Shown: positions 14,460-58,078 of the stretch, piece after piece
Layout: every line of letters starts with the position of its first letter
Numbering within the stretch: position 1 is the stretch's first letter
The notes under the pieces: generated by a model
Databases searched by the model: none
The model's input: the letters and a program-made list of their open reading frames with translations, nothing else
Told to the model about the DNA's origin: nothing
Source of the DNA: a virus
Lineage: Duplodnaviria > Caudoviricetes
Length of the DNA: 64,000 bases
IMG/VR virus record: IMGVR_UViG_3300026442_000101
Reading direction: 5' to 3' (one strand)
Made by a program: the position numbers and the translations under genes

Positions 14460-15134
14460 ATGGCTGGTAATCCCACCGTAACGCAAACCCAACAGTACCT
14501 CAACACCCTCGGCTTCAACTGCGGGATCGCTGACGGTATCTGGGGTAAGAACTCTCAAGGAGCCCTCGATCAACTCAAAGCCTCGGCTATCGACGCTTCT
14601 CATCCATACGGCGTGAAGAAGCTAGGTTGGGGTAAGAAGCTGAACGATGCTGAGATCGCCAAGGTAGCTCAGGTGGTCTCTAACCTGGGTCTTCCGAAGT
14701 CGATGATCATTGATCTCATGGCCTGCATGGCGTGGGAATCTGGTGAGTCGTTCAGTCCGTCGATCCGTAACCCCAAGTCAACTGCCACCGGCCTGATCCA
14801 GTTCATGGAAGCCACCGCAGTAGGTCTGGGTACCACCACCGCCAAACTGGCGAAGATGACGGTCATCGAGCAGCTGAACTACGTAGAGCGTTACTTCAAG
14901 CCCTACGCCAAGCGCCTGCAGAACCTGGGCGACCTGTACATGGGTATCATCTGGCCGGTCGGTATCGGCAAGCCTGATTCCTACGTCATGTGGAAATCCG
15001 GCGACAAGCAGTTCGAGCCGAACAAAGGTCTGGATGTCAACAACGACGGCCAGATCCTGCGTATCGAATGCCTGCACAAGGTCAACAACAAACTTGTGAA
15101 GGGCTTCCAGTCGCAGTTCGTCAAAGAACTCTGA
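14460..15134 (+). CDS. Modular endolysin: peptidoglycan-binding domain plus lysozyme/transglycosylase-like domain
   Basis: N-terminal QQYLNTLGFNCGIADGIWGKNS (PG_binding_1 pattern); catalytic WESG...PS.RNPKSTATGLIQFM; phiKZ gp144-like position. Confidence 0.9.
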   Translation: MAGNPTVTQTQQYLNTLGFNCGIADGIWGKNSQGALDQLKASAIDASHPYGVKKLGWGKKLNDAEIAKVAQVVSNLGLPKSMIIDLMACMAWESGESFSPSIRNPKSTATGLIQFMEATAVGLGTTTAKLAKMTVIEQLNYVERYFKPYAKRLQNLGDLYMGIIWPVGIGKPDSYVMWKSGDKQFEPNKGLDVNNDGQILRIECLHKVNNKLVKGFQSQFVKEL

Positions 15135-15135
15135 C

Positions 15136-15186
15136 AAAAAAAAAGAAAGCATAGAGCAGGTGGGTTTCCCCACCTGCTCCTTATGC
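15136..15186 (-). terminator. Rho-independent terminator with GCATA/TATGC outer stem
   Basis: gcata-gagcaggtggg-tttc-cccacctgctc-cttatgc; minus-strand tail CTTTCTTTTTTTTT. Confidence 0.85.
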
Positions 15187-15189
15187 CGC

Positions 15190-15876
15190 TTAGGCTTTCT
15201 GGTCGCGTAGACCTTTGTGCCATTCCATCGCAGATTCATGTGTGGTCACATGGAACTCGATCGGCATGAATGGCCAGCGCTCGGTGAACTCGTGGACCAG
15301 GTCACTGGCAAACTTCTCCTTATCGCCAATAACCAGCGTGCACGACGTGCCGCGATACTTCGTTTCCAACGACCATACACCGGCTTCGGTAGCCGTTTTC
15401 CAGATGCCGCAAATTTCCGGCTGATACTGGAGAGGGTTCTGGTGCACTAGTCGGTACATTCGCAGAGTGTACAGCGGGGTCAGGAACATCTTGGCAAAGA
15501 TCTTCTGACCTTGTGCGGTCAAGTCACCCAATTTCACGTCAGGGTAAACGTGATTGTAGTAACTGGTTGCAGGTTGTGGGAAAATCACCCTGACCATTTG
15601 CTTGGTAGCCAGAGCGATCACGCTGGCCAGTTCGGTGGGGAGGTTGGTCTCGCGGAAAGCGTTAATGCGTTCAGTTTGCGATGTCGCCTGATCGGCGGTC
15701 ACATGGATGAAGTGACTCCGATCGCTTTCGGATTTGTGTCGATCATGCACGTTCTTCTCATCACTGGTGGCTGCCAGTAGATGGGGTATATCGCTCACTT
15801 TATCGATCACAGTCTCCTGACCGAAAACTTCAAAGGTGAGTGGACCAGTCTGCAGGCTGGTGATTGGGTTTCGCAT
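15190..15876 (-). CDS. Hypothetical protein
   Basis: 228 aa with AAGGAG RBS. Confidence 0.6.
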   Translation of the reverse strand: MRNPITSLQTGPLTFEVFGQETVIDKVSDIPHLLAATSDEKNVHDRHKSESDRSHFIHVTADQATSQTERINAFRETNLPTELASVIALATKQMVRVIFPQPATSYYNHVYPDVKLGDLTAQGQKIFAKMFLTPLYTLRMYRLVHQNPLQYQPEICGIWKTATEAGVWSLETKYRGTSCTLVIGDKEKFASDLVHEFTERWPFMPIEFHVTTHESAMEWHKGLRDQKA

Positions 15877-15970
15877 GGTGTAGCTCCTTTTGTTGGCTGC
15901 TCGTGTTCTGCCTGGTAGGACTTACGAGGAGTCAGCGCGGTTAGTGCCCGTCGGAATGACGGGCTCCTAA

Positions 15971-16327
15971 TTACTTGTCGAAGAAGTAGAACTGACCATC
16001 GGCCAGGTGCTTCAACACCGCAACCACTTCGGCCTGAGCGAATGCGCATTCGAAGTGGAACGAGATGTAGTTGGCCAGGTTGGCGCAAAGATCACCTGGT
16101 ACTGGGTCAGGAAGTTCATCGACATCGTATTCGTGCTGGAGGTTAATTCTCACCTCCGGCATCGGAACAACTGCCATCTTCTGACACAGCTCCAGCTTGT
16201 AGCCGGCCTCGAGCATACTGTCGAGGACGCCTTCAGCTGCGATCTCGGTATCGAGGTCATCGTGGAACAGATCACCAATAGCCATGGTGACCGCGACCTG
16301 CAAACGTTGATTGAGCTTCTTGCGCAT
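15971..16327 (-). CDS. Hypothetical protein
   Basis: 118 aa acidic ORF abutting 16330; hairpin gcccgtc-ggaat-gacgggc (15946-15964) just downstream. Confidence 0.55.
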   Translation of the reverse strand: MRKKLNQRLQVAVTMAIGDLFHDDLDTEIAAEGVLDSMLEAGYKLELCQKMAVVPMPEVRINLQHEYDVDELPDPVPGDLCANLANYISFHFECAFAQAEVVAVLKHLADGQFYFFDK

Positions 16328-16329
16328 GG

Positions 16330-16950
16330 TTAGGCTACCTTGTGCTCGACGACTTCGCCGTCCAGGATTTTGTTGATGAACATCGCTTGATCTTTGATGA
16401 AGGAACAGAGGCGCAGCTCACGGTTCGCATTGGTCTGATGGCGAATGTAGCCAGCTACCGTGACCAGGTCATTCGGCGGGAACGACGGTTCGATGAAGTC
16501 AACAGAGCCGCTGATGAAGTCTGAGACGCTCGTATAGCGCGTCTGAGCAGCGTTCCACACCAAGGTCTGGTCTTTGTACACATCGCTGTAATCAGCGAAC
16601 ATGTGCGTGCTGGCGAGCCCTGCTGCGAGCAGCATAGCCACGTCCTCATCTAGCATGAGCGCGAATTGACTCATGAGGATCTGGTACTTGTCGTTGTTCG
16701 GCACGTAACCGTGACGATACGAATGGACGTAGCGGAACGCATCGCCGAAGCGCTCGAGATACTGATCCATCCCCATCAAGTATTCTTCGCTGTGGATGTG
16801 GTTATGCACCCGGATGTTCCGCTCACGCAAAGCGATCGCGTCATTGTGACTGTTGGTCTTTCTCAGACCCTGGATGCCTGCGGCTGCAAACCCCAAGCCA
16901 GCTGCGCCGATCACGCCCAACGCGATAGCCTGTTTGATTGAAAGAGCCAT
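16330..16950 (-). CDS. Hypothetical protein with N-terminal hydrophobic anchor
   Basis: 206 aa; AIALGVIGAAGLGFAAAGI; GGAGG RBS. Confidence 0.6.
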   Translation of the reverse strand: MALSIKQAIALGVIGAAGLGFAAAGIQGLRKTNSHNDAIALRERNIRVHNHIHSEEYLMGMDQYLERFGDAFRYVHSYRHGYVPNNDKYQILMSQFALMLDEDVAMLLAAGLASTHMFADYSDVYKDQTLVWNAAQTRYTSVSDFISGSVDFIEPSFPPNDLVTVAGYIRHQTNANRELRLCSFIKDQAMFINKILDGEVVEHKVA

Positions 16951-17276
16951 GTTGCCTCCGTGTTTTATTGTGAATCGGATCTACGCCGAAGCGATCGTCC
17001 GAGTATTTGTTTGCTGATGCCTGCCCAAAGGTCTTCACTATCGGGCGCTGGCACATCTGGGTATTTCGGATAAGTGGCGGCGATATCAATATCGCCATCA
17101 AAGTCTTTGTTCAGTCTCGTTTTCGAGAACTGCCCTTCAGATTCACCCCCTTGATCTCCGGAAAGTCCTTCGGGAGCATGAACGATGGGGAAATGAAGAA
17201 CCGTTGGGCCAAGGTCAGTGATTGTGATAGTGATTTCAAGGAGTCTTCAAGTAAGATGCTAGAATCGTTAGCCAGG

Positions 17277-17298
17277 GTAGGTGGGGAAACCCACCTAC
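17277..17298 (-). terminator. Hairpin at AAA gene stop
   Basis: gtaggtggg-gaaa-cccacctac overlapping the stop codon. Confidence 0.6.
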
Positions 17299-18395
17299 TC
17301 GGACTCCAGGGTGGCTTTGCCTTCTTCGCTCACCTTGGCCTTACGTTTACGGTTGCCGGTGCTCGAAAGGTTCTGGCTCCATGAACGCATGATAGTCATG
17401 GTGACCTCGTCGTTGAACTTCACGCGATACTTCACGCCGGTAGGGGTCGTGTGGATCACGGTAGCGCCGGGGTGGTTACGATCGAAGACGTAAGAACCGA
17501 TCATCTCCAGAGAGCCGTCCTGAATCAGGTCGATTTCCAGATGACCGTTGTCGTAACGCTCGATGACTTCACCGACGAAGGACTTGCCCTGGAACGCTAC
17601 GTCCACGACCGCCAGAGCTTGGTGTACAGGACCCGGAACGTTGAGGATCTTGATACGCTTGTTGAGATCCTTAGCAGCGGTAACGCGCTGTGCTTGACGA
17701 ACCAGGTACATCAGGATGTCGAAGCTCAGGTGATGAACAGACGCGTAGGCAACCAGGTATTCGGTAAGCTCCTCGTTGATGTCGTTGGAGCGGCAGACGT
17801 CCTTCACGATTTCGCTGGTCAGATCACCGTAGTCGATACGGAACATGAAGCGCCCAGGCCGATCGATCATGTATTCGTTGAGCTCCTTGTCTTCGTTGGC
17901 AGTGACCACGAACATGACGTTCTTGAGGTCAGAGTCAGAGAAGAGGGTCAGCATCGAATCTTTGGCAGACTTGCCATAGATCTTGCCGTACTCATCGAAG
18001 TAGACCATGCACGAGCCGATCAGGCCGATGACCGCTTTGAGCAGACCAGGCGGCAGCTCGTTGTTGATCAGCAGGACAGGCATCTCGAGATCGAGACACT
18101 TGTTACCCAGGTGTTCAGCCAGCAGGGATTTGCCAGAACCCTTCAGACCTTTGAGCAACACGCCGGTAGAGCACTGACGTTCTTCAAAGGCTTCCATGAT
18201 TGCCGACAGGTTATCCTGGTGATCACCGTAGATCTTGCTCGGCAGGCTGAAGCGCTTACGGTCACGGACGAGATCCAGGCCATCTTCAGTGAGGTTGATG
18301 CGATAGACAGCTGGTGGAATCTTTTCCACCCGGCCGACTTCTGGAACGTTACGAGCCGATACGTGAGAACCGTGATCGAAGAATTGCAGACCCAT
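17295..18395 (-). CDS. AAA-family ATPase
   Basis: Walker A GLKGSGKS, Walker B VYFDEYGK, sensor VTAN, arginine finger DRPGRF. Confidence 0.9.
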   Translation of the reverse strand: MGLQFFDHGSHVSARNVPEVGRVEKIPPAVYRINLTEDGLDLVRDRKRFSLPSKIYGDHQDNLSAIMEAFEERQCSTGVLLKGLKGSGKSLLAEHLGNKCLDLEMPVLLINNELPPGLLKAVIGLIGSCMVYFDEYGKIYGKSAKDSMLTLFSDSDLKNVMFVVTANEDKELNEYMIDRPGRFMFRIDYGDLTSEIVKDVCRSNDINEELTEYLVAYASVHHLSFDILMYLVRQAQRVTAAKDLNKRIKILNVPGPVHQALAVVDVAFQGKSFVGEVIERYDNGHLEIDLIQDGSLEMIGSYVFDRNHPGATVIHTTPTGVKYRVKFNDEVTMTIMRSWSQNLSSTGNRKRKAKVSEEGKATLESE

Positions 18396-18444
18396 CTTAA
18401 TTTCCTTACTTAATGGTTGATGTTGCGGTTAGGATTCAAGCTTG

Positions 18445-18462
18445 TAATGTATCACTGAAAAT
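18445..18462 (-). promoter_or_regulatory. Phage promoter motif copy 1 (TTTTCAGTGATACATTA)
   Basis: Repeated motif about 50 nt upstream of the AAA start; other copies at 34265, 41754 and 57761. Confidence 0.6.
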
Positions 18463-18541
18463 GTTTTTACAGCATAAGCGCCCCTCCCCACCTCTAGTAA
18501 AGAGCACTAGAGATGTTCGTTCGTTCCACTCACTCACTTGT

Positions 18542-18583
18542 CTAATCGTCGACTTCATTCCTTCGATCCAAGATCTCAGTCAT
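18542..18583 (-). CDS. Candidate 13-aa microprotein MTEILDRRNEVDD
   Basis: GAGGAG RBS 5 nt upstream of ATG; followed by hairpin ctctagt...actagag. Confidence 0.3.
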   Translation of the reverse strand: MTEILDRRNEVDD

Positions 18584-18654
18584 TACGTCTCCTCTAGAAT
18601 AAGGATGGGAGCTTTTAATGCAAAAGATCAAGAGCTTATCTAACTTTTTACATG

Positions 18655-18705
18655 CAGCATAAAGTGAGAGTCAGGTGGATGGGTCTTACGACCCATCCAC
18701 CCTCC
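18655..18705 (-). terminator. Portal gene terminator hairpin
   Basis: ggtggatgggtc-ttac-gacccatccacc with cagcata flank. Confidence 0.75.
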
Positions 18706-18714
18706 TCTAGTTAC

Positions 18715-21546
18715 TTACAGACCTGGGAACGTCGGATCGTCGGCGGCGTCACCGCCTTCGTTACCTTCGGTACCACCAGTTTCGTCAGCAGGCTTAGGTT
18801 CTTCAACCTCTTCCTCTTCAGGCTCAACTGGCTGTTCAGTTTCTTCTACCGGAGGAGTTTCTTCCTCATTGGCGAGTTCCTCGTTGCCGAGTTCGTCTTC
18901 GGTATTCTCCTGATCACCCATGTCTGGGACAGGAGCTTCTGCATCGAAGTCAGGTTCAGCTTCCTCTTCAGGCTGACCAATTTCGTTCAGAGCATCCTTT
19001 GTCATCTGATCGGCTTTCAGAGCACGTTCCTGACGCTTACGGTTCTTGTAAGCATCCTGCGCCACGATTTCCATGTAGTCAGACAGACCTGCCAGAAGCG
19101 CGCTTACGTGAGTCTTCATCTCTTCGTTCAGATTCATCAGAGGACTTCCATCCTCAGTGTTGACGAAGATATCCAGATCACGGAACAGACCACGCTCTCG
19201 CATCCAACGACGCAGCTCATGACCCTTGAGGGACGCGATTACGGTTGGGATGGATTCGCGGATGGTGTCGTTCATGTAACCGTGGAAGTACTCTTCCTGC
19301 ACGTAAGCCGGCAAGATGGTATCGAGCACGTCGGAGTAGTTCTTGTACATCTCGATCTGCTTGGTCATGTTATCCGACTCAGGAGCCGGCAGCTTCACAG
19401 TCAAGGTATTCAGGAACTCTTCGAGGAACGCTTCCGGATCTTCCTTGAATTCATCAGGCAGATCTTTGGTGTTGTTCTCGATGATCTCCATCAGCTGTTC
19501 GACCAAAGGACCGCTGTTGTACGTGAAGATACGCACGTAGTCAGTGATCATCGGGTTGGCCAGGTTCTGGAGCACCATGACGCGCTTGAGGAGCATCAGG
19601 CTGTTGCGCACGATGGTAGTCGCGAACTCAGGCTGGTTAGCGCCGTCGATCATCTCAGGCGTCAGGCTGAAGACACGCACCAAGTCAGAACGCAGACTTT
19701 CCAGCAGATCGGTATCCACGGGGTTGTACGAACTTTCCCGTGGCGTGATAGAGGTCTTCACCTCAGGATAACGAGGGTTACCCGACACGTTCACCGATAG
19801 CGCAGACATCTGCAGCTGTTCAGCCAAGCCCTGAATGCTGACGATACCAGTAGGGAACTGGTGATACGCCAGAGCCATCGCTTCGTTAGCCAGGAAGCTC
19901 ACTGTACCGACAGGATCGCCATCGTCCTCAGGGAGTTCGATGTTGATGTCCTTACCAGGAATGGCGTTCTTGGTAGCGCCGATGATGGAAGCTACGAGCA
20001 GGTTGGCGCGCATTGCTGCGAGCGACTTGGCATCTTCCAGGATGGATTTACCAATACCGTACTCGTTATAGTCGAAGGCCATGTAGACCATCAGCTCAGC
20101 AGGCACGTAAAGCATGGTGGTCTGCTGGTTCTTCATCGAACGCGAGAAGAGCAGGCGGTCAACGTGCTCGCTCTTGCTGATCTCCACATCGCCGCCTTGC
20201 AGGCCGGTCTTGATGCGGGCAATGATGTCGTGGTCGATGAACTCACCGTGCAGCTGGACCAGACGATCGATCAACTGGTTCGACGCATTTTGAATGCCGC
20301 CGTTCAGCGTTTCGTTCGCCATGTTCAGCAGTTCACCAGACACCTGGCTAGCCGAACCTACCTGACTATCGCCACCCACTGTCCCACGACGAATATCTTC
20401 GTAGAAATTCAAGCGACGGCTAAATGATAGCGGGAATCCATTTGCGTCGAGGATGATAATGTAGCCGATGTGGTTCGTCTCATCGCCTGGCACGCAGACC
20501 GGCATTACGGCCTCGATCGGGAGATGGTAAACCAGCGGATGACCTACGGTATCAGCGCCTGCTTGCTTGAGGGTCGGTACGACTTCCAGGCGGCTGCGTT
20601 TGACGCCCTGAGGAGCTCTGAAGAAACGGGAATAGATGTTGGAGGTATCGACCTCACCTTTCTTCCCGCCAGACTTCTTGTCGAGGACCGTATCGCCCTT
20701 GTCAGCCATCTCCTGACGTTCACGCGTTTGACGCTGCTTACGCCGAGACTCAAGCGAAGATTCGCCGTAGGCTGCACGCATCAGACGGGCACGCTTCTGT
20801 TCCTGCACCGCAGGCATACGCAGCGCAGCCAGGTTGTCAGTAACCTTGAACGGCAGAGTGACGGACTTCTGACCCTTCGACGCTTTGATGGTATGATAGT
20901 CCGCCATCTTGTCGCGGGTAATCGCCCTTCTGGAGGACTCCAGGCTGGCGTATGCGCCGTTTTTGGCAGTGGGGATGCGCAGGCCCAAGACACCCTTAGG
21001 TTTGAACCAATCGCCTTCCCATTCGCCACCGTAGCTCGCCACCGATTCCATCGAAGCATTGGAGTCAGTACCATTGATCATACGGTCGATGGACGCTTCA
21101 GGCAAGATCATGATAGCGTGTGCGCCGGACCAGACGAGCGCGTTGTCAATCCAATCGGGCACCTTCTTGTCGAGGTTCTGTTCTTCGACGTGGAACTTAT
21201 ACAGACCATCGACGAGCTGTGAGGTAAGCGCCGTGTCCGGCCCCGGCATGCCGTTGGCCATCACAAGCGACGTCGAAGAGAGGTCACCAGGCGCGACGAC
21301 CGCACTGACCAGGATGTCCTTGGCAAGCTTAAGGTCTGGCTGAATCTGGAAGATGTTGCGGATGTCAGTGGCGTCACGCAGAGTGCGACGTACCACACTG
21401 GCAATCGCAGTCATGTCGACGTTTTTCAGCTTACCATTACTGGGATCCGTTCTGTCGGTCACCAGTCGTCCAAGCAGGCGTTCGTCAGCCTCACTCAGAT
21501 TCCTGAACTGCGCAATCTTTTGCTGTGCGCGGTCATCGTTATCCAT
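18715..21546 (-). CDS. Portal protein (phiKZ gp129-like)
   Basis: 943 aa; size, acidic C-tail, GHPLVYHLPIEAVMPV..PG and YGIGKSILE motifs, synteny near capsid genes; ASMES/ASLES protease-type sites. Confidence 0.75.
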   Translation of the reverse strand: MDNDDRAQQKIAQFRNLSEADERLLGRLVTDRTDPSNGKLKNVDMTAIASVVRRTLRDATDIRNIFQIQPDLKLAKDILVSAVVAPGDLSSTSLVMANGMPGPDTALTSQLVDGLYKFHVEEQNLDKKVPDWIDNALVWSGAHAIMILPEASIDRMINGTDSNASMESVASYGGEWEGDWFKPKGVLGLRIPTAKNGAYASLESSRRAITRDKMADYHTIKASKGQKSVTLPFKVTDNLAALRMPAVQEQKRARLMRAAYGESSLESRRKQRQTRERQEMADKGDTVLDKKSGGKKGEVDTSNIYSRFFRAPQGVKRSRLEVVPTLKQAGADTVGHPLVYHLPIEAVMPVCVPGDETNHIGYIIILDANGFPLSFSRRLNFYEDIRRGTVGGDSQVGSASQVSGELLNMANETLNGGIQNASNQLIDRLVQLHGEFIDHDIIARIKTGLQGGDVEISKSEHVDRLLFSRSMKNQQTTMLYVPAELMVYMAFDYNEYGIGKSILEDAKSLAAMRANLLVASIIGATKNAIPGKDINIELPEDDGDPVGTVSFLANEAMALAYHQFPTGIVSIQGLAEQLQMSALSVNVSGNPRYPEVKTSITPRESSYNPVDTDLLESLRSDLVRVFSLTPEMIDGANQPEFATTIVRNSLMLLKRVMVLQNLANPMITDYVRIFTYNSGPLVEQLMEIIENNTKDLPDEFKEDPEAFLEEFLNTLTVKLPAPESDNMTKQIEMYKNYSDVLDTILPAYVQEEYFHGYMNDTIRESIPTVIASLKGHELRRWMRERGLFRDLDIFVNTEDGSPLMNLNEEMKTHVSALLAGLSDYMEIVAQDAYKNRKRQERALKADQMTKDALNEIGQPEEEAEPDFDAEAPVPDMGDQENTEDELGNEELANEEETPPVEETEQPVEPEEEEVEEPKPADETGGTEGNEGGDAADDPTFPGL

Positions 21547-21578
21547 CTACTCCTCTCCTTAAAGATCGGGGTCAAGTC

Positions 21579-23807
21579 ATGAATGCCTACTACAGGCTTT
21601 ACATCAAAGCGGTTCTAAAGCTTGCTGCGACACTCGTGATCAAGAGTAGCTACACAGCGCGGGCAATGAACGACTATCTAAAGTCGCTCGGCTACACCGT
21701 CGATCCTGACGACCCCTACAGCTGGAAGTACTACTTAAACCTCGCCGGGGAATATCACGAAAGCAACACAATGATGAAGGTCACCTCTCTGGATACCCAG
21801 GAGGAGATTGAATTCACCAAAGCTAACTTGCGCCTTCACCGGGCAACGGCAAAGGAATACACGTACGGCAATCGGTACTATCGCGACCTGGTCGCGGCGA
21901 ATCCAGATCAACAGTTGTTGATTAACGGGATCATCAACCCTGTCGATATCGAAATTTCGATATCAGCGAGTGACCATAATATCCTGTCCTACGACAGCAA
22001 GCTTGTGGAGCCCGCAGAACAGCAGCTGATCCCTGATCTGCAATGGTACATTACCAAGTATTTCGAACGTTACGACAACTCGGATTACGCGCTGTTTGAG
22101 CCGTATTACTACCCAGGTCTGCTCGGCGTCCTATATAGCAAACTGCCGACCGTCATCCTGATGAGTCGTAAGCGTGCGTGTAAGACCGATCGGGCCCACA
22201 GCTACCACATCCGTCAGTACCTGAACAGCTTCCATGCTGAGGTGGGTGCTGAGTTCGATTTCATGAGCCAGAAGCAGAAGTTGGCTCTGTATCGGAACAT
22301 CCTCTACCTCAACAGGAACATCGGACGCAAAGAGACGTTCGAATGGTTGACGCAGCGGATCTTGACGGATCGTGGTTTCTCTCTGGCGACGTACGACTTC
22401 GTACACTCCACGGAGAACATGCCGAAGAACCTCGTCCCTGACATCATCATGGACCGCTACCCGCTGAACGGCATTGCGCCTGCGTCAGGTAGCGACCGTA
22501 AGTCGGTGGGTGAGCTTCTGGATCTAGAGCTGCCGCTTGCTCGTGACAACATGGTTGCTCGAGACGATACCGAGATCGAAGCCACTGCTATCATGCAGAA
22601 GTCCCTCTGGGGCAAGCTTCCGACCAAGGTGCTCGAGTCCAACGTCATCGACCGCAGCGATGCTGAGCCGTTCACGCTGACCGAAGTATTGCTCAACCAC
22701 TGGATCTACCTGTCGCACTACGACCGGTTCAAGTCCGTGGTCCCGATCGTCAACCCTGCTAACGGCGACATCTTCAGGTTGTCGGTGAAGAACGCCTTCA
22801 TCTTCTATCTGTACGCCTATAACAAGGCGAACGATGTAACCATGACCAAGGTCCCGGTCATTGCAGCGAAACGCGTACGACGCATCCCAATGCCTACCAA
22901 GGCTGAGTTGCGTAACTTAGCTCCGCGCAGCCTCGTCCCTGATTACTACATCGACTACATTCTGGACACCCAGGTGGAAATCGGCACGTACATCAGTATC
23001 GAAGCGTTCCGCGAGATGTGCGTGCGTGTACAAAAGGTCATGATCGGCCACCGTGCCATGCGTCACTATAATGGTGACTACAAGGCAGAAGGTGCGCTGC
23101 ACACGATCATCGATCGCTGCTACATGGATATCCGGATCGACCTGGCTGATCAGATGGATTACGAGGTGTGGTTGAAGGACGTCGGCATCGACACTTCTTC
23201 CATGGGTCGTTTGGAATACGGCTTGATGGCGGCAGCTATCCTGAAGTCAGCCACTGGCGCTGACCTCGGTGACACTACCACCATGCGTCAAGTCCACGCC
23301 TCCATGCTCAGGATCATGAGAGCGCTGTCATCCTACTCCGTGCAGTACATCGCACAGATCAACGACAGTCCAATCAAGATCATCGACGGTAAGTTCCCGA
23401 AGCTCTCGATTCCTAAAGAGCATACGACGACTCACCTCGATATCGAGCTGGACATCCCGACCGTCCTCGAACAGTCTGCGTACGAGAAAGAGACGATCGA
23501 CATCCCTGTCCCGCCTACGTACGTAAGCGTCACTGCCAAAGCGCAGAACGCCACCATGCGTGTGCCTACGGACATCTGGACTCGGATCATCGGAGTGGGC
23601 GATCACCATGCGCCTATTCCATTGCAGACTCCGGCCATCAGCCTAAGGCAGCCAGCGGTAACCGACTTGAGTGAATTCACTCAGAGCGGCATTGCCGGTT
23701 ATCTACCAATCCCTGAGCGCGCCCTTACCGATCTCATCACTGCCGCCCGTCTCGACGGTTACGACAAGATGACAGATGCTAGACGTAAGGCGTTCCTCGG
23801 CATTTGA
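21579..23807 (+). CDS. Large baseplate/virion structural protein (phiKZ gp128-like)
   Basis: About 742 aa from ATG 21579; WKYYLNLAGEYH motif; divergent from portal. Confidence 0.65.
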   Translation: MNAYYRLYIKAVLKLAATLVIKSSYTARAMNDYLKSLGYTVDPDDPYSWKYYLNLAGEYHESNTMMKVTSLDTQEEIEFTKANLRLHRATAKEYTYGNRYYRDLVAANPDQQLLINGIINPVDIEISISASDHNILSYDSKLVEPAEQQLIPDLQWYITKYFERYDNSDYALFEPYYYPGLLGVLYSKLPTVILMSRKRACKTDRAHSYHIRQYLNSFHAEVGAEFDFMSQKQKLALYRNILYLNRNIGRKETFEWLTQRILTDRGFSLATYDFVHSTENMPKNLVPDIIMDRYPLNGIAPASGSDRKSVGELLDLELPLARDNMVARDDTEIEATAIMQKSLWGKLPTKVLESNVIDRSDAEPFTLTEVLLNHWIYLSHYDRFKSVVPIVNPANGDIFRLSVKNAFIFYLYAYNKANDVTMTKVPVIAAKRVRRIPMPTKAELRNLAPRSLVPDYYIDYILDTQVEIGTYISIEAFREMCVRVQKVMIGHRAMRHYNGDYKAEGALHTIIDRCYMDIRIDLADQMDYEVWLKDVGIDTSSMGRLEYGLMAAAILKSATGADLGDTTTMRQVHASMLRIMRALSSYSVQYIAQINDSPIKIIDGKFPKLSIPKEHTTTHLDIELDIPTVLEQSAYEKETIDIPVPPTYVSVTAKAQNATMRVPTDIWTRIIGVGDHHAPIPLQTPAISLRQPAVTDLSEFTQSGIAGYLPIPERALTDLITAARLDGYDKMTDARRKAFLGI

Positions 23808-52086: not shown

Positions 52087-53223
52087 ATGCGCGGATTCAA
52101 CATCATCGGTCTCAATCACCTCCAGAAAGGCAAGCTCGGTGACATGAACGCTTGCTACGGATTTGGTTCCAGTCAATGGGAGCCGGTCGCCATTCGCAAC
52201 GCGACGAGCCAGGGTCAAGTTGGGTTGTACGTCAATACTGCCAACAAGCTGGTGTTTGCAGTAAACGACACGGTCGGAACAACCAAGGCCGGCTGCACTC
52301 AAATCAAGCTGTCTAAATTGATCGATAACGCAGCCGACGTCGCTGAGCTTACCATCGGTATGCGTCTTGATGCTGCGCCGTATACGCCGTCCATCACCAG
52401 CGCTTATCCACTGGTCTGCCTTTATGCGATACAGCCCGCTGTCGGCGCTACCAACGGACCACAATCCACTCTCGTGATACAGCCTTCTGCTAACGTCGCT
52501 GCAGCGTCTGGTTACTACGAGTTCGTATTCACCCTAACCGCCGTAGGTGCCGGCGGTGGTAGGATCGACATCTATCTGGATAAAGTCTTCCAGGGCTACA
52601 CCACGTTGGCATCCACGATCGGTCGAACCAACATTGGTAACTACTACCTCAGCTTCGGTCGTATGGCTATGGTTTGCTATAACAGCACGACTCCTGGGCT
52701 CGGTGGTGCGGATACGGTGCTCTTCACCATGGAGGACATTTACTGCGTGTACGACACCGTCGTTCAAGATGGTAGTACCCGTAAAGGTCCGATGAAGATC
52801 CGCCCTCTGGACGTCGATACCAACAACGATGTCGCGTGGCAGACTTCGGACGGCAGTGCTCGTGCAGCGTGCTTGAACCTCGCCGATCACCACGGCACTA
52901 TCTTGACGCCGTATGTCCTGTCCCCACTCGACATGACGGCCATCAAACTCAGACGCGTCACTACGCCGATCAGCGACAGCGACAAGATCCTCTGCATTGC
53001 TGGAGCGACTAGCGCTTCTCGTGACGTAGGGCAGTCAGCGAACATCTCGGCTAAGTGGAAGTTCAACTCTTCGGAATCGGCAGCTACCAGCTATCTGCCC
53101 ACTTCCGGAGACTACACCACGCAGAAGGACTTCCCGCTAGTCACTCTCCAGGCCATGCCGGACGGCTCACCCTTCACCAAGGCCAAGTTGGCTGACCTCG
53201 AGATGGTCCTGACTCCGGTATAA
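52087..53223 (+). CDS. Lectin/LamG-like beta-sandwich virion protein (paralog 3)
   Basis: GYYEFVF; MEDIYCVYD...RKGPMKIRPL; FT...L.DL..VLTP. Confidence 0.5.
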   Translation: MRGFNIIGLNHLQKGKLGDMNACYGFGSSQWEPVAIRNATSQGQVGLYVNTANKLVFAVNDTVGTTKAGCTQIKLSKLIDNAADVAELTIGMRLDAAPYTPSITSAYPLVCLYAIQPAVGATNGPQSTLVIQPSANVAAASGYYEFVFTLTAVGAGGGRIDIYLDKVFQGYTTLASTIGRTNIGNYYLSFGRMAMVCYNSTTPGLGGADTVLFTMEDIYCVYDTVVQDGSTRKGPMKIRPLDVDTNNDVAWQTSDGSARAACLNLADHHGTILTPYVLSPLDMTAIKLRRVTTPISDSDKILCIAGATSASRDVGQSANISAKWKFNSSESAATSYLPTSGDYTTQKDFPLVTLQAMPDGSPFTKAKLADLEMVLTPV

Positions 53224-53233
53224 CGAGGTCGTC

Positions 53234-53944
53234 ATGCCGCAAATCAAACTTAGGAACGCCCCACTCTACGTGGGTATGGTGGGCGATGCGCGAGTTAAGT
53301 TGCGTAACGCCCCGATGTATGTGGCGGTTCAGAGCCCACCTGTGGTAGAGTTCCGTAGCGTCAGGGCCTACGCTTTGACTCAACCAGCGAACACCACGCA
53401 GTTACGTAATGTTCGGATGTACGCGCTGGTGCAGATGGCGCCGCTTACCTATCTTGCCAAGGCAGGCGCGGTAGCTCTCCTCGAGGCTATCAACAAGGAA
53501 CATTCCAAAACCCTGACTGCGGAGCAGGTGTATTTCGAGAATCCCCAACCTCTGGCTGGTGATGATCACTTCAACTCGCAGATCACCATGAAGCCACATG
53601 CGGTGTTCCCGTATTCTGGACAAATGGTGTTCCGGTATAACCGATTCGTCATCGCTGACTTCTTCGCAGGTAAGGATACCAGTACCCTGCCAGCAGGTAG
53701 TCAGACCACCATCCACGGACGACTGGCGGCTATCAATAGTACGTTTGGGTGCTCGTTATCGACGACTGATGTCGTGAACGCTCCAGTGGCAGCTAATACC
53801 ACAGGCCTCACGCTCACCATCGCTACCACGAGTATTCTATTCGTACCAGGTAGTAAGATGTTCATCGGACAGTCGTTACCAGCCGACGATCTCTCGGTCA
53901 AGGCTCCGGTAACCGATCTCGGTGGTTTTGATGCAGAAGGCTAA
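53234..53944 (+). CDS. YxRxD family with four N-terminal LRNxxxY repeats
   Basis: KLRNAPLYV, KLRNAPMYV, FRSVRAYAL, LRNVRMYAL; RYNRFVI; ends VTDLGGFDAEG. Confidence 0.65.
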   Translation: MPQIKLRNAPLYVGMVGDARVKLRNAPMYVAVQSPPVVEFRSVRAYALTQPANTTQLRNVRMYALVQMAPLTYLAKAGAVALLEAINKEHSKTLTAEQVYFENPQPLAGDDHFNSQITMKPHAVFPYSGQMVFRYNRFVIADFFAGKDTSTLPAGSQTTIHGRLAAINSTFGCSLSTTDVVNAPVAANTTGLTLTIATTSILFVPGSKMFIGQSLPADDLSVKAPVTDLGGFDAEG

Positions 53945-53949
53945 GTAGA

Positions 53950-53986
53950 CAGCATACAGCCCCGGCGCGAGCCGGGGCTGTATGTC
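53950..53986. terminator. Bidirectional terminator with GCATA/TATG flanks
   Basis: gcatacagccccggc-gcga-gccggggctgtatg. Confidence 0.85.
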
Positions 53987-53994
53987 GCTTGGGA

Positions 53995-54519
53995 TTAACC
54001 CTCGGCGTCGAAGCCGTCCAGGTCAGTCACGGAAGCTGCTTCGTTCAGAGGAACGTCAGCGTCCGGTACGGACAGAACAGCAGCGAAGGTGCCGGTGTAC
54101 AGCAGGCTGCCAGCGTCGGCAACAACATCGGCCGAACCGTTGGTGTCTTCGTCAACCGGGCGAACGATGTTCGACAGGCTGATTTCCGATTCGATCAGAC
54201 CCAGCGCGGTAGCGACCTTGGTCAGGACCTGTGCGTCGGTATCGCCTTCAGCGATGACCACAGGGATGGCCTTGGCAGTAGCGATACCTTCGCCAGCAGT
54301 CAGCGCCCGACGGGTGTAGCTGAAGGTCTGGGTGCCGCTGAAGCCTTGGTTGTCGACAGCGGTGTAGGTGATGCTGGTGTTGCGACCACCAGTGCCAGCT
54401 TCGCTGACAACCGAGCCAGGAGTGATCTGGGCGGCGGTAGCGTTCAGGCTGGGGTTAGCAGCGTTGATCAGTGCCAGGACGTTAGCCGCGGCAGTGATGG
54501 CGATATTGACTTTAGCCAT
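53995..54519 (-). CDS. YxRxD family member on opposite strand, probably high-copy
   Basis: SYTRRAL; SLLYTG; ends VTDLDGFDAEG; strong codon bias. Confidence 0.65.
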   Translation of the reverse strand: MAKVNIAITAAANVLALINAANPSLNATAAQITPGSVVSEAGTGGRNTSITYTAVDNQGFSGTQTFSYTRRALTAGEGIATAKAIPVVIAEGDTDAQVLTKVATALGLIESEISLSNIVRPVDEDTNGSADVVADAGSLLYTGTFAAVLSVPDADVPLNEAASVTDLDGFDAEG

Positions 54520-54570
54520 GATGTTGAACCCTTCATGTTTGCGGTTAGGGACAGTCCTAACATAGCATCA

Positions 54571-54620
54571 GCGGCATAAGCCCCTACACCAGAGCCGTGA
54601 AGCCTGGTGTAGGGGAATGC
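54571..54620 (-). terminator. Hairpin closing ncRNA candidate A
   Basis: cccctacaccag...ctggtgtagggg 12-bp stem with gcata/aatgc flanks. Confidence 0.75.
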
Positions 54621-55242
54621 TCAAGGATCAGAAAGGCAACTACCCGACAATGGATACCTGGGGAGGAGATGCGCGGCTGCTACGCGCTCCATCGTCGTTA
54701 GGTCGACCAAGACTTTTGTCGCCCTTATCTCCGTTTCAGTGAGGTCAATACCCACCCATCAGATCGCCTATAATAGACGTGCACATCCATTACAAGCATC
54801 TGAAGGCTGCGTACTACGAGCCGCGTTGGTCGGCAGTCCATTTCCGTCTTTTACGATCATCGCTTCAGCCCACTGGACTGCGGGTCGAACCCGGAGCAGC
54901 GGTCCACTAGACCGACGGAGCGTGACGGCGTACCACGATTAACTGCCAAGCGCGAACATCGTGCAACAACTTGAGTACTCCTTGAAGCGTTGGCGTGCTT
55001 AACGAGTCCCCCGTACCCTTCGAAACTCTAATCACCGGCCAGGGGTCAGAGAGTCTCTCATATACTCCAATAGTCCAGGGTGAGGTTATTGGAGATGCCC
55101 TAAGGCATATCAAACACAAGAGTGTTTCACGCCATGTTTAACGTCTTGCGATCATCAGTGATAAGACGATCAGAGGACCAGCTGCCTTAGACAGTCAGGC
55201 GGCCAGCGAGGGAGTCCGGGATGCGCGGCTGGTCCTCTGATA
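54620..55242 (-). ncRNA. Large structured ncRNA candidate A (about 620 nt; strand tentative)
   Basis: No credible ORF; at least nine stems seen by eye; 12-nt direct repeat at 54668 and 55220. Confidence 0.55.
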
Positions 55243-55263
55243 TAATACTTTCATGTTTCGTAA

Positions 55264-55971
55264 TTATTCACGGATAGTTCGCACCATGTACTCGTTGGTC
55301 ATCTTGATGACGTTACCTAACTTAGTAGCCGCGTTGATGCGCTGGCAGAACTCTTTGAGGATCGGTCCACCGGACTGGGATTTACAGTTGAAGGTCAGTT
55401 GGATCATGCCGGCGAAGATACGGACTTCGATAAGCGGCACCGGCAGCAGGGTGGCTTGGATCACCTTGCCGTCGATATCGGTACGATATAGCACGTAATG
55501 GTAATCGAGATCACGAGTGCTATCAAGTACGACTTGGTTGATGCCGTAGAGGGCTTGCCGTATCGCATCACGATCGGCAGTGTCGGTGTCGTTAAACACT
55601 ACGCTGATACTTCCGCCAGTATCCTCACCACCAACCGAGACTACCTGCATACGCAGCAGGGCGTTAATGACATCACGATTGGCTTTGAGGTGATCCATGC
55701 TCGAGTCGAACTGTAACGCAGTGATCGCTAAGCTCGTGTCCACGCGGCGTGGTACGTTCTGTTCCTTGATGACGATCTCGACTTTACTGCCATCAAGGCT
55801 AGTCCAGTTACGGATATCCTCGCCAACGAGGTTGCGCTCTGCACGCAGATCCTCGCTGGTGATCTTAACCTCGTGACCGTACTCCTGCATCAGAGCACGC
55901 TCGATGATTGCCATGACGTGACTTTTACCGACGCCGGTCGAACCTTTAACGATGACTTCGAGCTTTTCCAT
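55264..55971 (-). CDS. Hypothetical protein with N-terminal P-loop-like motif
   Basis: VIVKGSTGVGKSHV; no clear Walker B. Confidence 0.6.
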   Translation of the reverse strand: MEKLEVIVKGSTGVGKSHVMAIIERALMQEYGHEVKITSEDLRAERNLVGEDIRNWTSLDGSKVEIVIKEQNVPRRVDTSLAITALQFDSSMDHLKANRDVINALLRMQVVSVGGEDTGGSISVVFNDTDTADRDAIRQALYGINQVVLDSTRDLDYHYVLYRTDIDGKVIQATLLPVPLIEVRIFAGMIQLTFNCKSQSGGPILKEFCQRINAATKLGNVIKMTNEYMVRTIRE

Positions 55972-56341
55972 TGGCTGCGATCTCTCTTTTGATGTATGAC
56001 CATTTGTTCATGATGCCCGCCGCAGCGCCGAGCGCTACGTCATGACAATCATTGTATTCAAACGCTACCTCCCTGAGACCAGGTCGTAGGGCTCCGACCT
56101 GCTTGTCGTCACGCTTAGCTTCGAGGACGACACAGTAGACCTCGTGTTTGACGAGGTGCGCCACGTACCGGGCAGCGTCACGCCACAGCTTGTTAGGGAC
56201 ATCATGGCAGGTCATCTTACGGACCTCATTGAGATAACCCTCAACCTTTAAGATGAGGACGTATTCGTCGCCAAGGAGTCGAAGTAAGTCTCGAGGTATT
56301 TGATGCCGCACACAGTCCAGCAGAAATGCTTCCAGTTCCAT
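55946..56341 (-). CDS. Hypothetical protein
   Basis: 131 aa; GGAGGT RBS. Confidence 0.6.
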   Translation of the reverse strand: MELEAFLLDCVRHQIPRDLLRLLGDEYVLILKVEGYLNEVRKMTCHDVPNKLWRDAARYVAHLVKHEVYCVVLEAKRDDKQVGALRPGLREVAFEYNDCHDVALGAAAGIMNKWSYIKREIAANGKARSHR

Positions 56342-56394
56342 GACGACCTCCGTTTATTCATTACATAGCCGTCATTGTTAAATGTATACGAACG

Positions 56395-56660
56395 GCATAA
56401 AGACCCGGCCGAAGCCGGGCATCTTGATCTTCATGTTGCCCGTCGTTGTACATGCGCATCCGGCTAGAGGCAGCGAACCGCCCGATAGGTTTCAGCTACA
56501 AGCATTGATAGGCGCGTTCAGCCTCAGGAAGAACGCTAAGGGGTGGCGTTGCCGCCATTGGGGTTCCATTCCTCAGGGAGCTGGACGAAACGGACGTCCT
56601 TACTGTGAGTTCAAGATCTAAATTGTGAAAGAGCTCAGAGAACAACTTGTGAGGGCATTC
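56395..56660 (-). ncRNA. Structured ncRNA candidate B (about 250 nt) with UUCG terminator hairpin
   Basis: Minus-strand GCAA and UUCG tetraloop hairpins; closing stem atcttga/tcaagat. Confidence 0.55.
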
Positions 56661-56698
56661 TCTACATAGTATATTGACATCATCCGTAAGTATTCACG

Positions 56699-56748
56699 CA
56701 AAAAAAAAAGAAAGTAGCACAGCCCGGCTTTCGCCGGGCTGTATGCTG
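56699..56748 (-). terminator. Terminator with CTTTCTTTTTTTTTT tail
   Basis: gca-cagcccggc-tttc-gccgggctg-tatgc. Confidence 0.85.
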
Positions 56749-57072
56749 TCAGTCTTTGCGACGTCTGAAGGATGTGATTGCTTTCTTGATGTAGGAGAGG
56801 TTCTTGATCTCGGAATACGGGACCGAGTTCTGCCGACAGAAATCTCTGTAGGCGATCAACTCCTCCATCTTCGAAAGCTGCACGTAGTGACTGATCTCAC
56901 CATCGGGTAGATAGTGGCGGATATAGATCATGTCGTCCTTGTGCTTACTTGGGTCAGCAGCTTCCCAGATGAGTCGCTCCTTACCGTGGATCGTATCTAC
57001 GAAGAGGTGGACGACAGTGCCGTCCTCATCCCCGTAGTGATCCTGACTGTGCTTGATGTACGGCTGTGTCAC
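56749..57072 (-). CDS. Hypothetical protein
   Basis: 107 aa, GTG start overlapping upstream stop. Confidence 0.55.
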   Translation of the reverse strand: MTQPYIKHSQDHYGDEDGTVVHLFVDTIHGKERLIWEAADPSKHKDDMIYIRHYLPDGEISHYVQLSKMEELIAYRDFCRQNSVPYSEIKNLSYIKKAITSFRRRKD

Positions 57073-57374
57073 GTAACTACCTCGTAGACTTTGTTGTACA
57101 GATCACGGATCTCCTTGAGGACCCGATCGCGATCACCTTTGTAGTCATGCGAGATGATTGTCTGCATGAGCCACGCTTCTGCCGCAGTGAGCTTGCGCTC
57201 GATATCTGCGATCTTCTCCAGGATCTTCTTGTGAAGAAACTCGATCTCCTCATCGATCTTCTTCTTATCCGCCTCGGTCCGAGGAGTTGGTTTGTATCGC
57301 TGGTAAGCTGCGTAACCTCCACCAGTGATCACGCCAGCTGCTATCAGAGCGGCTACTAACTTTGCTGCGTTCAC
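57069..57374 (-). CDS. Membrane-anchored coiled-coil protein
   Basis: GGAGGT RBS with GTG start; AALIAAGVITGGGYAAYQ. Confidence 0.6.
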   Translation of the reverse strand: MNAAKLVAALIAAGVITGGGYAAYQRYKPTPRTEADKKKIDEEIEFLHKKILEKIADIERKLTAAEAWLMQTIISHDYKGDRDRVLKEIRDLYNKVYEVVT

Positions 57375-57383
57375 GGTTACCTC

Positions 57384-57722
57384 CTAGCCTACATTAGGCA
57401 TGACGATAAGTTTGATGACCTTCAGCTGATCCTGGATGCTCTCCAGTTCGGTAGGCGACAATTTGTCGAGTTCGCCCGTGGTGCTCTGGACAGTCAGCTT
57501 AGCAAGGAAATCTACCTGGACATCGCTCAGCAAACCGCTGCCATTCAGGTTGACGAACAGGCTGATCATCTGAAGATCCACAATGATCGAAGTGACTTTC
57601 ATCTTGGCGAGAGTTCTGTCTTCGCTTTCCTTTGTAGCTTTGATGGACTTGTAGGCTGCGTAACCCAGACCACCAACGATTGCACCCAGAGCAGCGATAC
57701 GGACGATATTACCAAAGTTCAT
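57384..57722 (-). CDS. Membrane-anchored protein
   Basis: GAGGAGGT RBS; IAALGAIVGGLGYAAYK. Confidence 0.65.
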   Translation of the reverse strand: MNFGNIVRIAALGAIVGGLGYAAYKSIKATKESEDRTLAKMKVTSIIVDLQMISLFVNLNGSGLLSDVQVDFLAKLTVQSTTGELDKLSPTELESIQDQLKVIKLIVMPNVG

Positions 57723-57787: not shown

Positions 57788-57836
57788 GCGGCATATACCC
57801 CACCACCGGCGGAGCGACCGGTGGTGGGGATCTATG
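57788..57836 (-). terminator. Hairpin closing ncRNA candidate C
   Basis: ccccaccaccggc-ggagc-gaccggtggtgggg with gcata/tatg flanks. Confidence 0.75.
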
Positions 57837-57844
57837 TTGGTTCA

Positions 57845-58060
57845 CACTTGGGGCTGAGTGGTCACCCCACAGAGTTCGGCTTGTCCTCACGACGCTGAAC
57901 TCTGCAGGCTGTGCACTCTAGGCACTAGCTAGACTCCGACGGACCCGCGACCGTCGTAGCCTAAGGTCGGAGAGGACTCCCGACCACGGTGATCCAACGA
58001 TGGGAGTGTGCACACCGTTGGATTAAACTGAATCCATTCGCCCGAAATAATTCAGTCTAA
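57845..58060 (-). ncRNA. Six-hairpin ncRNA candidate C (strand tentative)
   Basis: Adjacent stems at 57849-57869, 57870-57904, 57919-57963, 57965-57985, 57992-58023 and 58027-58056. Confidence 0.55.
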
Positions 58061-58078
58061 CATATAATACATCACATG

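Follow-up and report, generated by a model that had tools for sequence, protein, structure and literature searches.

What lies between two minus-strand genes at positions 54520-55263 of the virus record IMGVR_UViG_3300026442_000101 (IMG/VR), and is it transcribed as an RNA in its own right? The window, i.e., the whole 64,000-nucleotide (nt) stretch of DNA that was analysed, comes from a phiKZ-related jumbo phage of soil that has not been cultured. Its major head protein of 750 amino acids (aa) is <40% identical to those of phiKZ-type jumbo phages of Pseudomonas, Xanthomonas, Erwinia, and Ralstonia, and the DUF7941 protein encoded downstream of the stretch is also found on contigs of up to 248 kb. 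It is likely, in our view, that the stretch specifies an independent, minus-strand structured RNA of ~670 nt that is matured by a ribozyme, is very abundant, and comes from an undescribed family of phiKZ-related jumbo phages.

Coding status and homologues

The stretch 54520-55263 is non-coding. On both sides it is flanked by minus-strand genes, namely 55264-55971 (-), which lies upstream in the direction of transcription and encodes a 235-aa protein of unknown function, and 53995-54519 (-), which lies downstream and encodes a 174-aa DUF7941 virion protein. Its longest open frame has 70 aa, and no conserved reading frame is found in 54520-55263; frames shift among close relatives, and none is common with the more distant loci L010 or L031.

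Homologues were sought by lookups from the flanking proteins, while the distant phage L031 came from a hammerhead scan. A homologous non-coding stretch occurs at the same place and in the same orientation in five further lineages: L003 (88% identity to the window stretch), L005/L006 (76%), L040/L041 (85%), L010 (conserved blocks only), and L031. Between the window and L040, identity is 85% over the RNA and 81% over the neighbouring genes; the RNA is thus conserved about as well as its neighbours and not above the genomic backbone. Among the loci examined, nhmmer with a profile of the whole RNA found no additional homologues. A DNA search of GenBank phages with the stretch and with 10 kb of neighbouring sequence gave no match, and neither did the 235-aa upstream protein as a query in viral contigs.

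A folded minus-strand RNA

The sequence-only reading had proposed a large structured non-coding RNA with near-continuous stems that could not be assigned to any class, and this proposal holds up well, with every one of its stems present. An inverted-repeat scan recovers 17-nt arms at 55169-55185/55225-55241, arms at 55065-72/55087-94 and 54833-40/54874-81, and the terminal 12-base-pair (bp) hairpin at 54581-92/54604-15; it also returns the arms CTCCAATA/TATTGGAG and GCAGTCCA/TGGACTGC. The stems cgtctt/aagacg, aaacac/gtgttt, and atgcc/ggcat are likewise seen in the sequence. The minimum free energy is -267 kcal/mol for the plus strand (z -4.25) and -286 kcal/mol for the minus strand (z -5.21), and for neither strand is any of 20 dinucleotide shuffles as low.

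Compensatory changes exceed both shuffle and slid controls. For the six-sequence alignment, RNAalifold predicts 167 pairs, 48 of which show double-sided changes that keep pairing, compared with a mean of 19.6 and a maximum of 32 over 500 column shuffles. Cells over the predicted pairs are canonical in 90.5% of cases vs. 35-44% when the 3' partners are slid. In the same alignment, G-U cells outnumber A-C cells (119 vs. 23), whereas the two are about equal in slid controls, and in L005 and L040 a number of single C-to-U and A-to-G substitutions, located in the leader hairpin P1 and in hairpin H5, keep pairing on the minus strand only. The G-U excess and these substitutions indicate a minus-strand RNA rather than a DNA cruciform. 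Nonetheless, it might be supposed that the hairpins act as DNA, i.e., that they mark an origin of replication, a packaging site, or a hot spot of recombination in a variable slot, given that the slot varies among relatives (a protein gene or different non-coding stretches) and that both strands fold better than shuffles. This explanation is highly improbable: such a preponderance of G-U is unexpected for DNA cruciforms, local depth is raised ~100-fold in RNA libraries, and the ribozyme core described below is conserved.

No Rfam 15 family is found at gathering score in the whole window, and at E<=10 the region 54300-55500 gives three chance-level matches only, to unrelated small families. Neither a tRNA nor a tmRNA is found by ARAGORN, nor an RNase P RNA by Rfam models, in agreement with the earlier note; a T-arm-like GGGUUCGACCC (about 54900) lies within a lineage-specific variable insert. 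The 12-nt repeat GATGCGCGGCTG, reported near both ends, indeed has exactly two copies, at 54668 and 55220 (chance expectation 0.01), but its second copy is degenerate in all homologues, and the repeat is therefore probably not functional. The suggestion that gcagtcca/tggactgc has an alternative partner, and thus forms a switch or pseudoknot, stands in part: UGGACUGCC does have two possible partners, of which only the long-range one (GGCAGU near 54945) covaries, whereas the local one lies within a lineage-specific insert.

A predicted hammerhead ribozyme near the 5' end

Judged from its sequence, 55163-55108 (-) is a complete type I hammerhead of the U10.1-U11.1 variant, for which self-cleavage is predicted. 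Class and variant are both known; the present hammerhead adds a new member. Its parts are as follows (a slash marks the predicted cut).

55108-55163 (-): type I hammerhead, UAUCA-CUGAUGA-U-CGC...GCG-U-GAA-ACAC-UCUU-GUGU-U/UGAUA
55163-59 with 55112-08 (-): stem I, 4-5 bp
55158-52 (-): core CUGAUGA
55151-55129 (-): stem II, with the U10.1-U11.1 mismatch followed by CGC/GCG
55128-26 (-): GAA
55125-14 (-): stem III, in which A55125 pairs with U55114
55113 (-): H17, which is U55113; predicted cut between 55113 and 55112
55164-55168 (-): 5' strand CGUCU of a pseudoknot, whose partner is AGACG of loop II, 55146-55142

All of the core requirements are present (C3 U4 G5 A6 N7 G8 A9, G12 A13 A14, A15.1-U16.1, and H17 not G), and the three helices have type I topology (I open, II and III closed), in a small number of independent lineages. 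The core is identical in L003, L005, L040, L010, and L031, with A as H17 in L010 and L031; no part of the 5' region is better conserved than the core blocks UCACUGAUGAUCGC and GCGUGAAAC, L010 and L031 included. Since MAFFT failed to place the rearranged stem III of L010 and the pseudoknot register of L031, the hammerhead helices were checked sequence by sequence. Stem III is ACAC/GUGU in the window vs. ACCU/AGGU in L031, i.e., two compensatory pairs. In L010, an A-U pair of stem I is swapped to U-A, and stem III is restored by an insertion as a 9-bp helix, with A/UGAA after it, so that UGU-A-UGAA suits stem III, H17, and stem I. Stem II (CGC/GCG) is invariant, and its loop, unusually long at 15 nt, has a conserved sequence. 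This loop is predicted to be joined to the 5' flank of stem I by a 5-bp pseudoknot, which pairs in all lineages and covaries in three: CGUCU/AGACG in the window, CGCCC/GGGCG in L010, and UGUCG/CGACA in L031. Pseudoknots between stems I and II have been noted in hammerheads, and hammerheads are known from phage intergenic regions, where they split polycistronic transcripts (PMC3088659).

A descriptor that demands the core, >=3/4 stem II pairs, >=3 stem III pairs, H17 not G, and >=4 stem I pairs was scanned over 297 kb and matches RNA-bearing loci only, with one hammerhead per unit and 0.1 matches expected per shuffled set. The first hammerhead-based pattern gave no match in viral contigs. A looser pattern of the hammerhead core returned only small-phage hammerheads from viral contigs, and from genome contigs about as many matches as expected by chance, which look like ordinary genomic sequence; the large RNA appeared in neither set.

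The small-phage hammerheads, L042:8240-8300 (-), L045:2200-2275 (+), and L048:8495-8570 (+), look like canonical type I hammerheads, have the same U10.1-U11.1 core (CUGAUGA-U-CGC..GCG-U-GAAAC), and lie directly upstream of a ribosome-binding site and ATG. Two further candidates within the window RNA were rejected. A second hammerhead, CUGAUGG...GAAAC (about 54760-54730), fails because GAAAC is not conserved, and the long-range pair of GGCGUGAA in the hammerhead with UUUAUGCC at the 3' end, which came from the alignment fold, is not interpretable because both sides are invariant for other reasons.

The proposed 5' boundary and the leader

Three features precede the hammerhead.

55259-55271 (-): GUGAAUAAUUACG, a conserved element that overlaps the upstream 235-aa gene at its stop codon
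55240-55248 (-): GUAUUAUAU motif, immediately preceding the first helix
55169-55241 (-): leader hairpin P1, branched in its interior; its 14-bp stem pairs 55241-55228 with 55182-55169

As to the first of these, all six homologous regions have an invariant UUACG at their start, and L028 has a related GUAAAUAGUUACG after a terminator and TATG motif; GUGAAUAAUUACG is a possible promoter or RNA 5' boundary. Exact copies of GUAUUAUAU number two in the window, both on the minus strand before non-coding units (55248-55240 and 58070-58062), and UAwUAUAw is kept in L003, L005, L040, and L010. At the place of P1, L031 has a wholly different 14-bp stem, UAGAGUACCCCAUC/GGUGGGGUGCUCUA, while in L005 and L040 the C-to-U and A-to-G changes within P1 give G-U pairs. 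A putative pseudoknot between the P1 interior CUAAGGCA (55190-83) and UGCCUUAG just past the cut site was rejected, being no better than shuffles and broken in L005.

The body and its core helix

Past the predicted cut, the body runs in the order H4, H5, long-range helix, variable central insert, core helix, and terminal hairpin.

55095-55108 (-): hairpin H4, AUGCC-UUAG-GGCAU, directly past the predicted cleavage site
55065-55094 (-): hairpin H5, CUCCAAUA...UAUUGGAG, from the inverted-repeat scan and the alignment
55011-55020 (-): 5' strand AAGGGUACGG of the closing long-range helix, pairing with CUGAUCCUU, 54631-54623
54623-54631 (-): 3' strand of the closing helix (alignment pairs 264-273 with 673-681)
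54743-54817 (-): irregular core helix ..CAGCCUUCAG.. / ..CUGAUGGGUGGG.., with a variable apical hairpin

H4 (pairs 146-150 with 175-179 in alignment A8) has compensatory changes in L005, L010, and L031. H5 becomes CUCUGAU/AUUGGAG in L040, with G-U pairs that form on the minus strand only, and CACCGA/UCGGUG in L031. The strands of the closing helix are near-invariant in six sequences, and two changes in L031 keep pairing (G-U to A-U and G-C to G-U); conservation and one-sided changes are thus the only support for this predicted helix.

The core helix is the part that recurs. In a nine-sequence alignment, 90% of its cells are paired vs. 35-43% in slid controls, and double-sided changes occur in 14 of 27 pairs, compared with 6.3 +/- 1.7 in shuffles, none of 500 of which reaches 14. 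Two covariance models were built: R1 from the 3' core and R2 from the nine-sequence core-helix alignment. R1 gives weak matches at the same slot in L018, L029, and L028, as well as in a second non-coding unit of the window. Outside its training set, R2 matches L001 and L014 (33 bits, E about 5e-9) and window positions 57919-57853 (-) (26.5 bits, E 1e-6), and the counterpart of the latter, L040:1561-1626, matches too. As a whole-record R2 search missed the L001 match found by cmsearch, negatives of the whole-record search were ignored. Over 13 sequences, the helix combines invariant A-U and C-G pairs with purine-purine and U/G-U/G mismatches at fixed positions, a pattern that suggests a protein-binding or tertiary-contact site. 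The core helix defines an RNA family in related jumbo phages and in the second window unit, and this family is undescribed.

The second unit, about 57800-58070 (-), has a GTATTATAT motif in front (58070-58062) and ends in a hairpin and TATATGCCG. This unit and the RNA at 54520-55263 are probably paralogues.

The proposed 3' end and maturation

54572-54615 (-): terminal 12-bp hairpin and CUUAUGCCG, with stem 54615-54604 pairing with 54592-54581; 3' end of the unit

The stem of the terminal hairpin covaries in L003, L040, L010, and L031. Ahead of the DUF7941 gene come, in turn, this hairpin with TTATGCCG and a TATG motif, which resembles the phiKZ late-promoter motif; in L031, an extra open reading frame lies between the RNA and the DUF7941 gene.

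Intergenic sites repeatedly show a hairpin with (T/C)TTATGC(C/T)G after it, with 34 matches (<=1 mismatch) vs. 17 expected; examples in the window are at 15180, 18655, 28438, 34308, 38972, 56393, and 60250. Judging from these sites, the combination looks like a joint terminator and late-promoter punctuation of the phage.

It is reasonable to propose the following course of maturation. The unit would start at or just past the stop codon of the upstream 235-aa gene, with the leader hairpin P1 first and then the hammerhead, held in shape by its pseudoknot (5' flank with loop II). On self-cleavage between 55113 and 55112, the leader would be cut off, along with any mRNA that had read through from the upstream gene; what remains would be a body of ~540 nt that carries a 5'-hydroxyl and extends to the terminal hairpin, 54615-54581. 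This body would be shut by the long-range helix and organised around the irregular core helix, 54817-54743. Actual cleavage, the exact ends, and the function of the RNA are inferred here.

Alternatively, the stretch could be the 3' trailer of the 235-aa gene mRNA or the 5' leader of the DUF7941 mRNA, in which case the hammerhead would only split a polycistronic transcript and the depth in RNA libraries would reflect a stable decay intermediate. There is no terminator from the upstream stop codon (55264) to P1, the small-phage hammerheads with the same core directly precede a ribosome-binding site and ATG, and processing of polycistronic RNA by phage intergenic hammerheads has been described (PMC3088659). 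However, ~540 nt of covarying structure past the cut goes far beyond the need of a processing signal. Moreover, the unit has its own hairpin and TTATGCCG, the DUF7941 gene has its own TATG motif and is preceded in L031 by another open reading frame, and the core helix recurs in another non-coding unit of the window. A trailer or leader is thus unlikely, and an independent RNA is the preferred explanation.

Abundance in RNA libraries

The stretch is present in 21 soil metatranscriptome runs, four of which (X4, X7, X11, and X14) were compared over 52500-57500 using Logan contigs. One part of the body stands out.

54895-55094 (strand not given): part of the body with very high depth in RNA libraries, in assembly pieces of 31-60 nt

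Pieces at 54895-54985 reach a depth of 15,483-18,000 in run X4 and pieces at 55004-55094 one of 15,067-22,483 in run X14, compared with a mean depth of 145-271 in the adjoining 40-kb contigs; the high-depth pieces are accompanied by low-depth single-letter variants. This local excess, about 100-fold or more in the two runs, is beyond what DNA carry-over can explain. It should be noted that contig depths cannot rank genes and that RNA parts without short high-depth pieces give no evidence of lower abundance. No circular junction is seen in the RNA contigs. In one X4 contig, a probable chimeric join at 54952 brings in 255 unrelated letters.

The genome slot

Upstream of the DUF7941 gene, several sister phages have a protein gene instead of the RNA, of 332-341 aa in L007, L011, and L034-L037. 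The products of the following slot genes have a mutual identity of 40-72%.

L007:1914-2912: slot protein gene
L034:232-1248: slot protein gene
L011:1893-2906: slot protein gene
L035:1889-2899: slot protein gene
L037:1937-2962: slot protein gene

The Pfam family Acb2_Tad1_hairpin is recorded for the slot proteins of L007-L009 and L034; its name comes from the anti-defence sponge proteins Acb2 and Tad1. The presence of a protein gene in the RNA slot of sister phages means that the slot behaves as an accessory, swappable position. It also invites the view that the window stretch is a pseudogene in decay, left over from the ~335-aa slot gene of related phages. The probability of this is close to negligible, since tblastn of the slot proteins against the stretch gives nothing below E = 0.3, the stretch is conserved like the neighbouring genes and with compensatory pair changes, and it has no conserved frame.

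In other relatives (L001, L028, L018, and L029), the slot holds structured non-coding stretches that differ from the window RNA. Those of L001 and L028 fold strongly (z -4.8 and -6.2), begin with the terminator of the upstream gene, a U-run, and the TATG motif, and contain no hammerhead. In the RNA family of the window, no terminator follows the upstream gene, and P1 and the hammerhead occupy that position. The combination of terminator and TATG motif without a hammerhead in L001 and L028 is consistent with the 5' end of the body being produced by the hammerhead. The slot RNAs L001:3700-3790 and L018:2715-2790 have a common 5' module, GAAAnUUCUCUCCAGGGCA..UG.AGAGA.UCUUCG, which the window RNA lacks. 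The sequences suggest that the RNA family may be assembled from exchangeable modules around the core helix.

Weighing the evidence

Several points weigh against an independent, ribozyme-matured RNA. The first concern the hammerhead, whose 10.1-11.1 closing pair is U-U in all members instead of the usual G10.1-C11.1, with a long loop on stem II alongside the missing pair. However, U10.1-U11.1 occurs in natural active hammerheads and is the best-tolerated mispair (Perreault et al. 2011, PMC3088659), and a documented natural variant of this kind is compatible with membership of the class. In addition, the Rfam hammerhead models give no match in the 101 bases searched at E<=10. Nonetheless, Rfam 15 at gathering score also misses the canonical-looking small-phage hammerheads L042, L045, and L048, which have the same core (L045 at E<=10 too), and a scan of phage PaP3, at the gathering threshold only, reported no hammerhead although an active one has been published there. 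The negative result is thus weak evidence against a hammerhead.

The same points could mean that the large RNA is real and that its hammerhead-like segment is dead or serves another fold, such as the hairpin CGUCUUAUCA...UGAU...AAGACG, which the alignment fold favours; inactive hammerhead-like sequences do exist in nature (PMC3088659). However, the covarying CGUCU/AGACG of this alternative hairpin fits the hammerhead fold as its pseudoknot, stems I and III covary independently, and the L010 insertion recreates UGU-A-UGAA, as stem III, H17, and stem I require. With the U-U mispair present in natural hammerheads as well, a dead segment is quite unlikely, and a working hammerhead remains the better account.

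The remaining points concern the RNA as a whole. The full RNA is represented by about six independent lineages, four of them close, so that few sequences underlie much of the body model. In the RNA libraries, the phage region 52500-57500 lies in single contigs of 16-69 kb in X4, X7, X11, and X14; the presence of the whole phage in long contigs of the same libraries indicates DNA carry-over or pervasive transcription. Furthermore, the contigs that reveal the local excess give no ends, strand, or profile, so that the transcript boundaries are those read from the sequence.

Comparison with known systems and possible function

The window RNA is a large phage non-coding RNA outside the curated families, with a built-in predicted ribozyme. 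With the phage intergenic type I hammerheads (PMC3088659) it has in common the catalytic core, three helices in type I topology, U-U at 10.1/11.1, a putative stabiliser of the stem I/loop II pseudoknot type, and an intergenic site in a phage. However, those hammerheads lie just upstream of a coding gene, whereas the present one is embedded close to the 5' end of a ~670-nt structured RNA that is itself conserved; it also differs in its conserved 15-nt stem II loop, in being undetected by Rfam models, and in that its activity is predicted. GOLLD and ROOL resemble the window RNA in having several hundred nt and many conserved helices and in being phage-borne, abundant, and of unknown function. 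The window RNA differs from them in its predicted self-cleaving ribozyme, its host (a phiKZ-related soil jumbo phage), and its irregular mismatched helix, and at gathering score it is matched by none of the GOLLD, ROOL, OLE, HEARO, raiA, and other Rfam 15 models.

Viroid-like RNAs and retrozymes (PMC5680766) resemble it in size (600-1000 nt), in having a hammerhead, and in being highly abundant in RNA libraries, but the window RNA is present as one copy in a double-stranded DNA phage genome and has a single hammerhead. A circular RNA of this type was considered and rejected, because there is a single hammerhead and neither the CUGAUGG...GAAA-like segment nor the 12-nt direct repeat is conserved; circularisation is not supported in view of the lack of a second ribozyme, of a ribozyme-bearing repeat, and of a circular junction in the contigs.

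Among phiKZ-like phages, phiKZ and 201phi2-1 express non-coding transcription units (PMC13282480, PMC11512511). The parts of these reports that were available describe no ribozyme-containing RNA and no family of ~600 nt, and in the accessible portions of the literature on phiKZ-like jumbo phages no description was found of this or any large structured RNA.

Large structured RNAs without a known function are uncommon, and such RNAs have repeatedly proved to be ribozymes, scaffolds, or regulators. It is possible, though at less than even odds in our estimation, that the RNA acts as a stable scaffold or decoy, using its mismatched helix to bind a protein of the phage or the host; the helix itself, the abundance of the RNA, the paralogous second unit, and the accessory slot are the reasons for considering this. 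A more doubtful extension is that it represents a new class of extremely abundant scaffolds, matured by a ribozyme or made from a promoter, in which the mismatched helix would serve to capture a protein, of host or phage origin, in the course of host take-over or counter-defence. Such a role is hinted at only by the slot gene with the Acb2/Tad1-hairpin match in sister phages and by the existence of at least two paralogous units.

If the preferred reading of an independent RNA is right, a self-cleaving ribozyme would be linked to the maturation of a large non-coding RNA, whereas the known phage hammerheads split polycistronic transcripts (PMC3088659). In RNA libraries from soil, the RNA appears to exceed the remainder of the phage genome ~100-fold in abundance. 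The locus offers a concrete predicted cleavage site, a conserved helix motif usable for finding more family members, and a bait for a binding partner.

Other features of the region

A third gene-free stretch, 56395-56665 (-), lies between the two RNA units and ends in TTTATGCCG at 56401-56393; models R1 and R2 give no match on it. The C-terminal two thirds of the 235-aa gene (55309-55747, -) form a hypervariable patch, in which the window and L040 have no nucleotide match; the proteins are 45% identical, and the patch is bordered by flanks of 80-85% identity. Downstream of the RNA, two convergent genes for DUF7941 virion proteins, 53234-53944 (+) and 53995-54519 (-), encode nearly the same C-termini, DLGGFDAEG and DLDGFDAEG, respectively.

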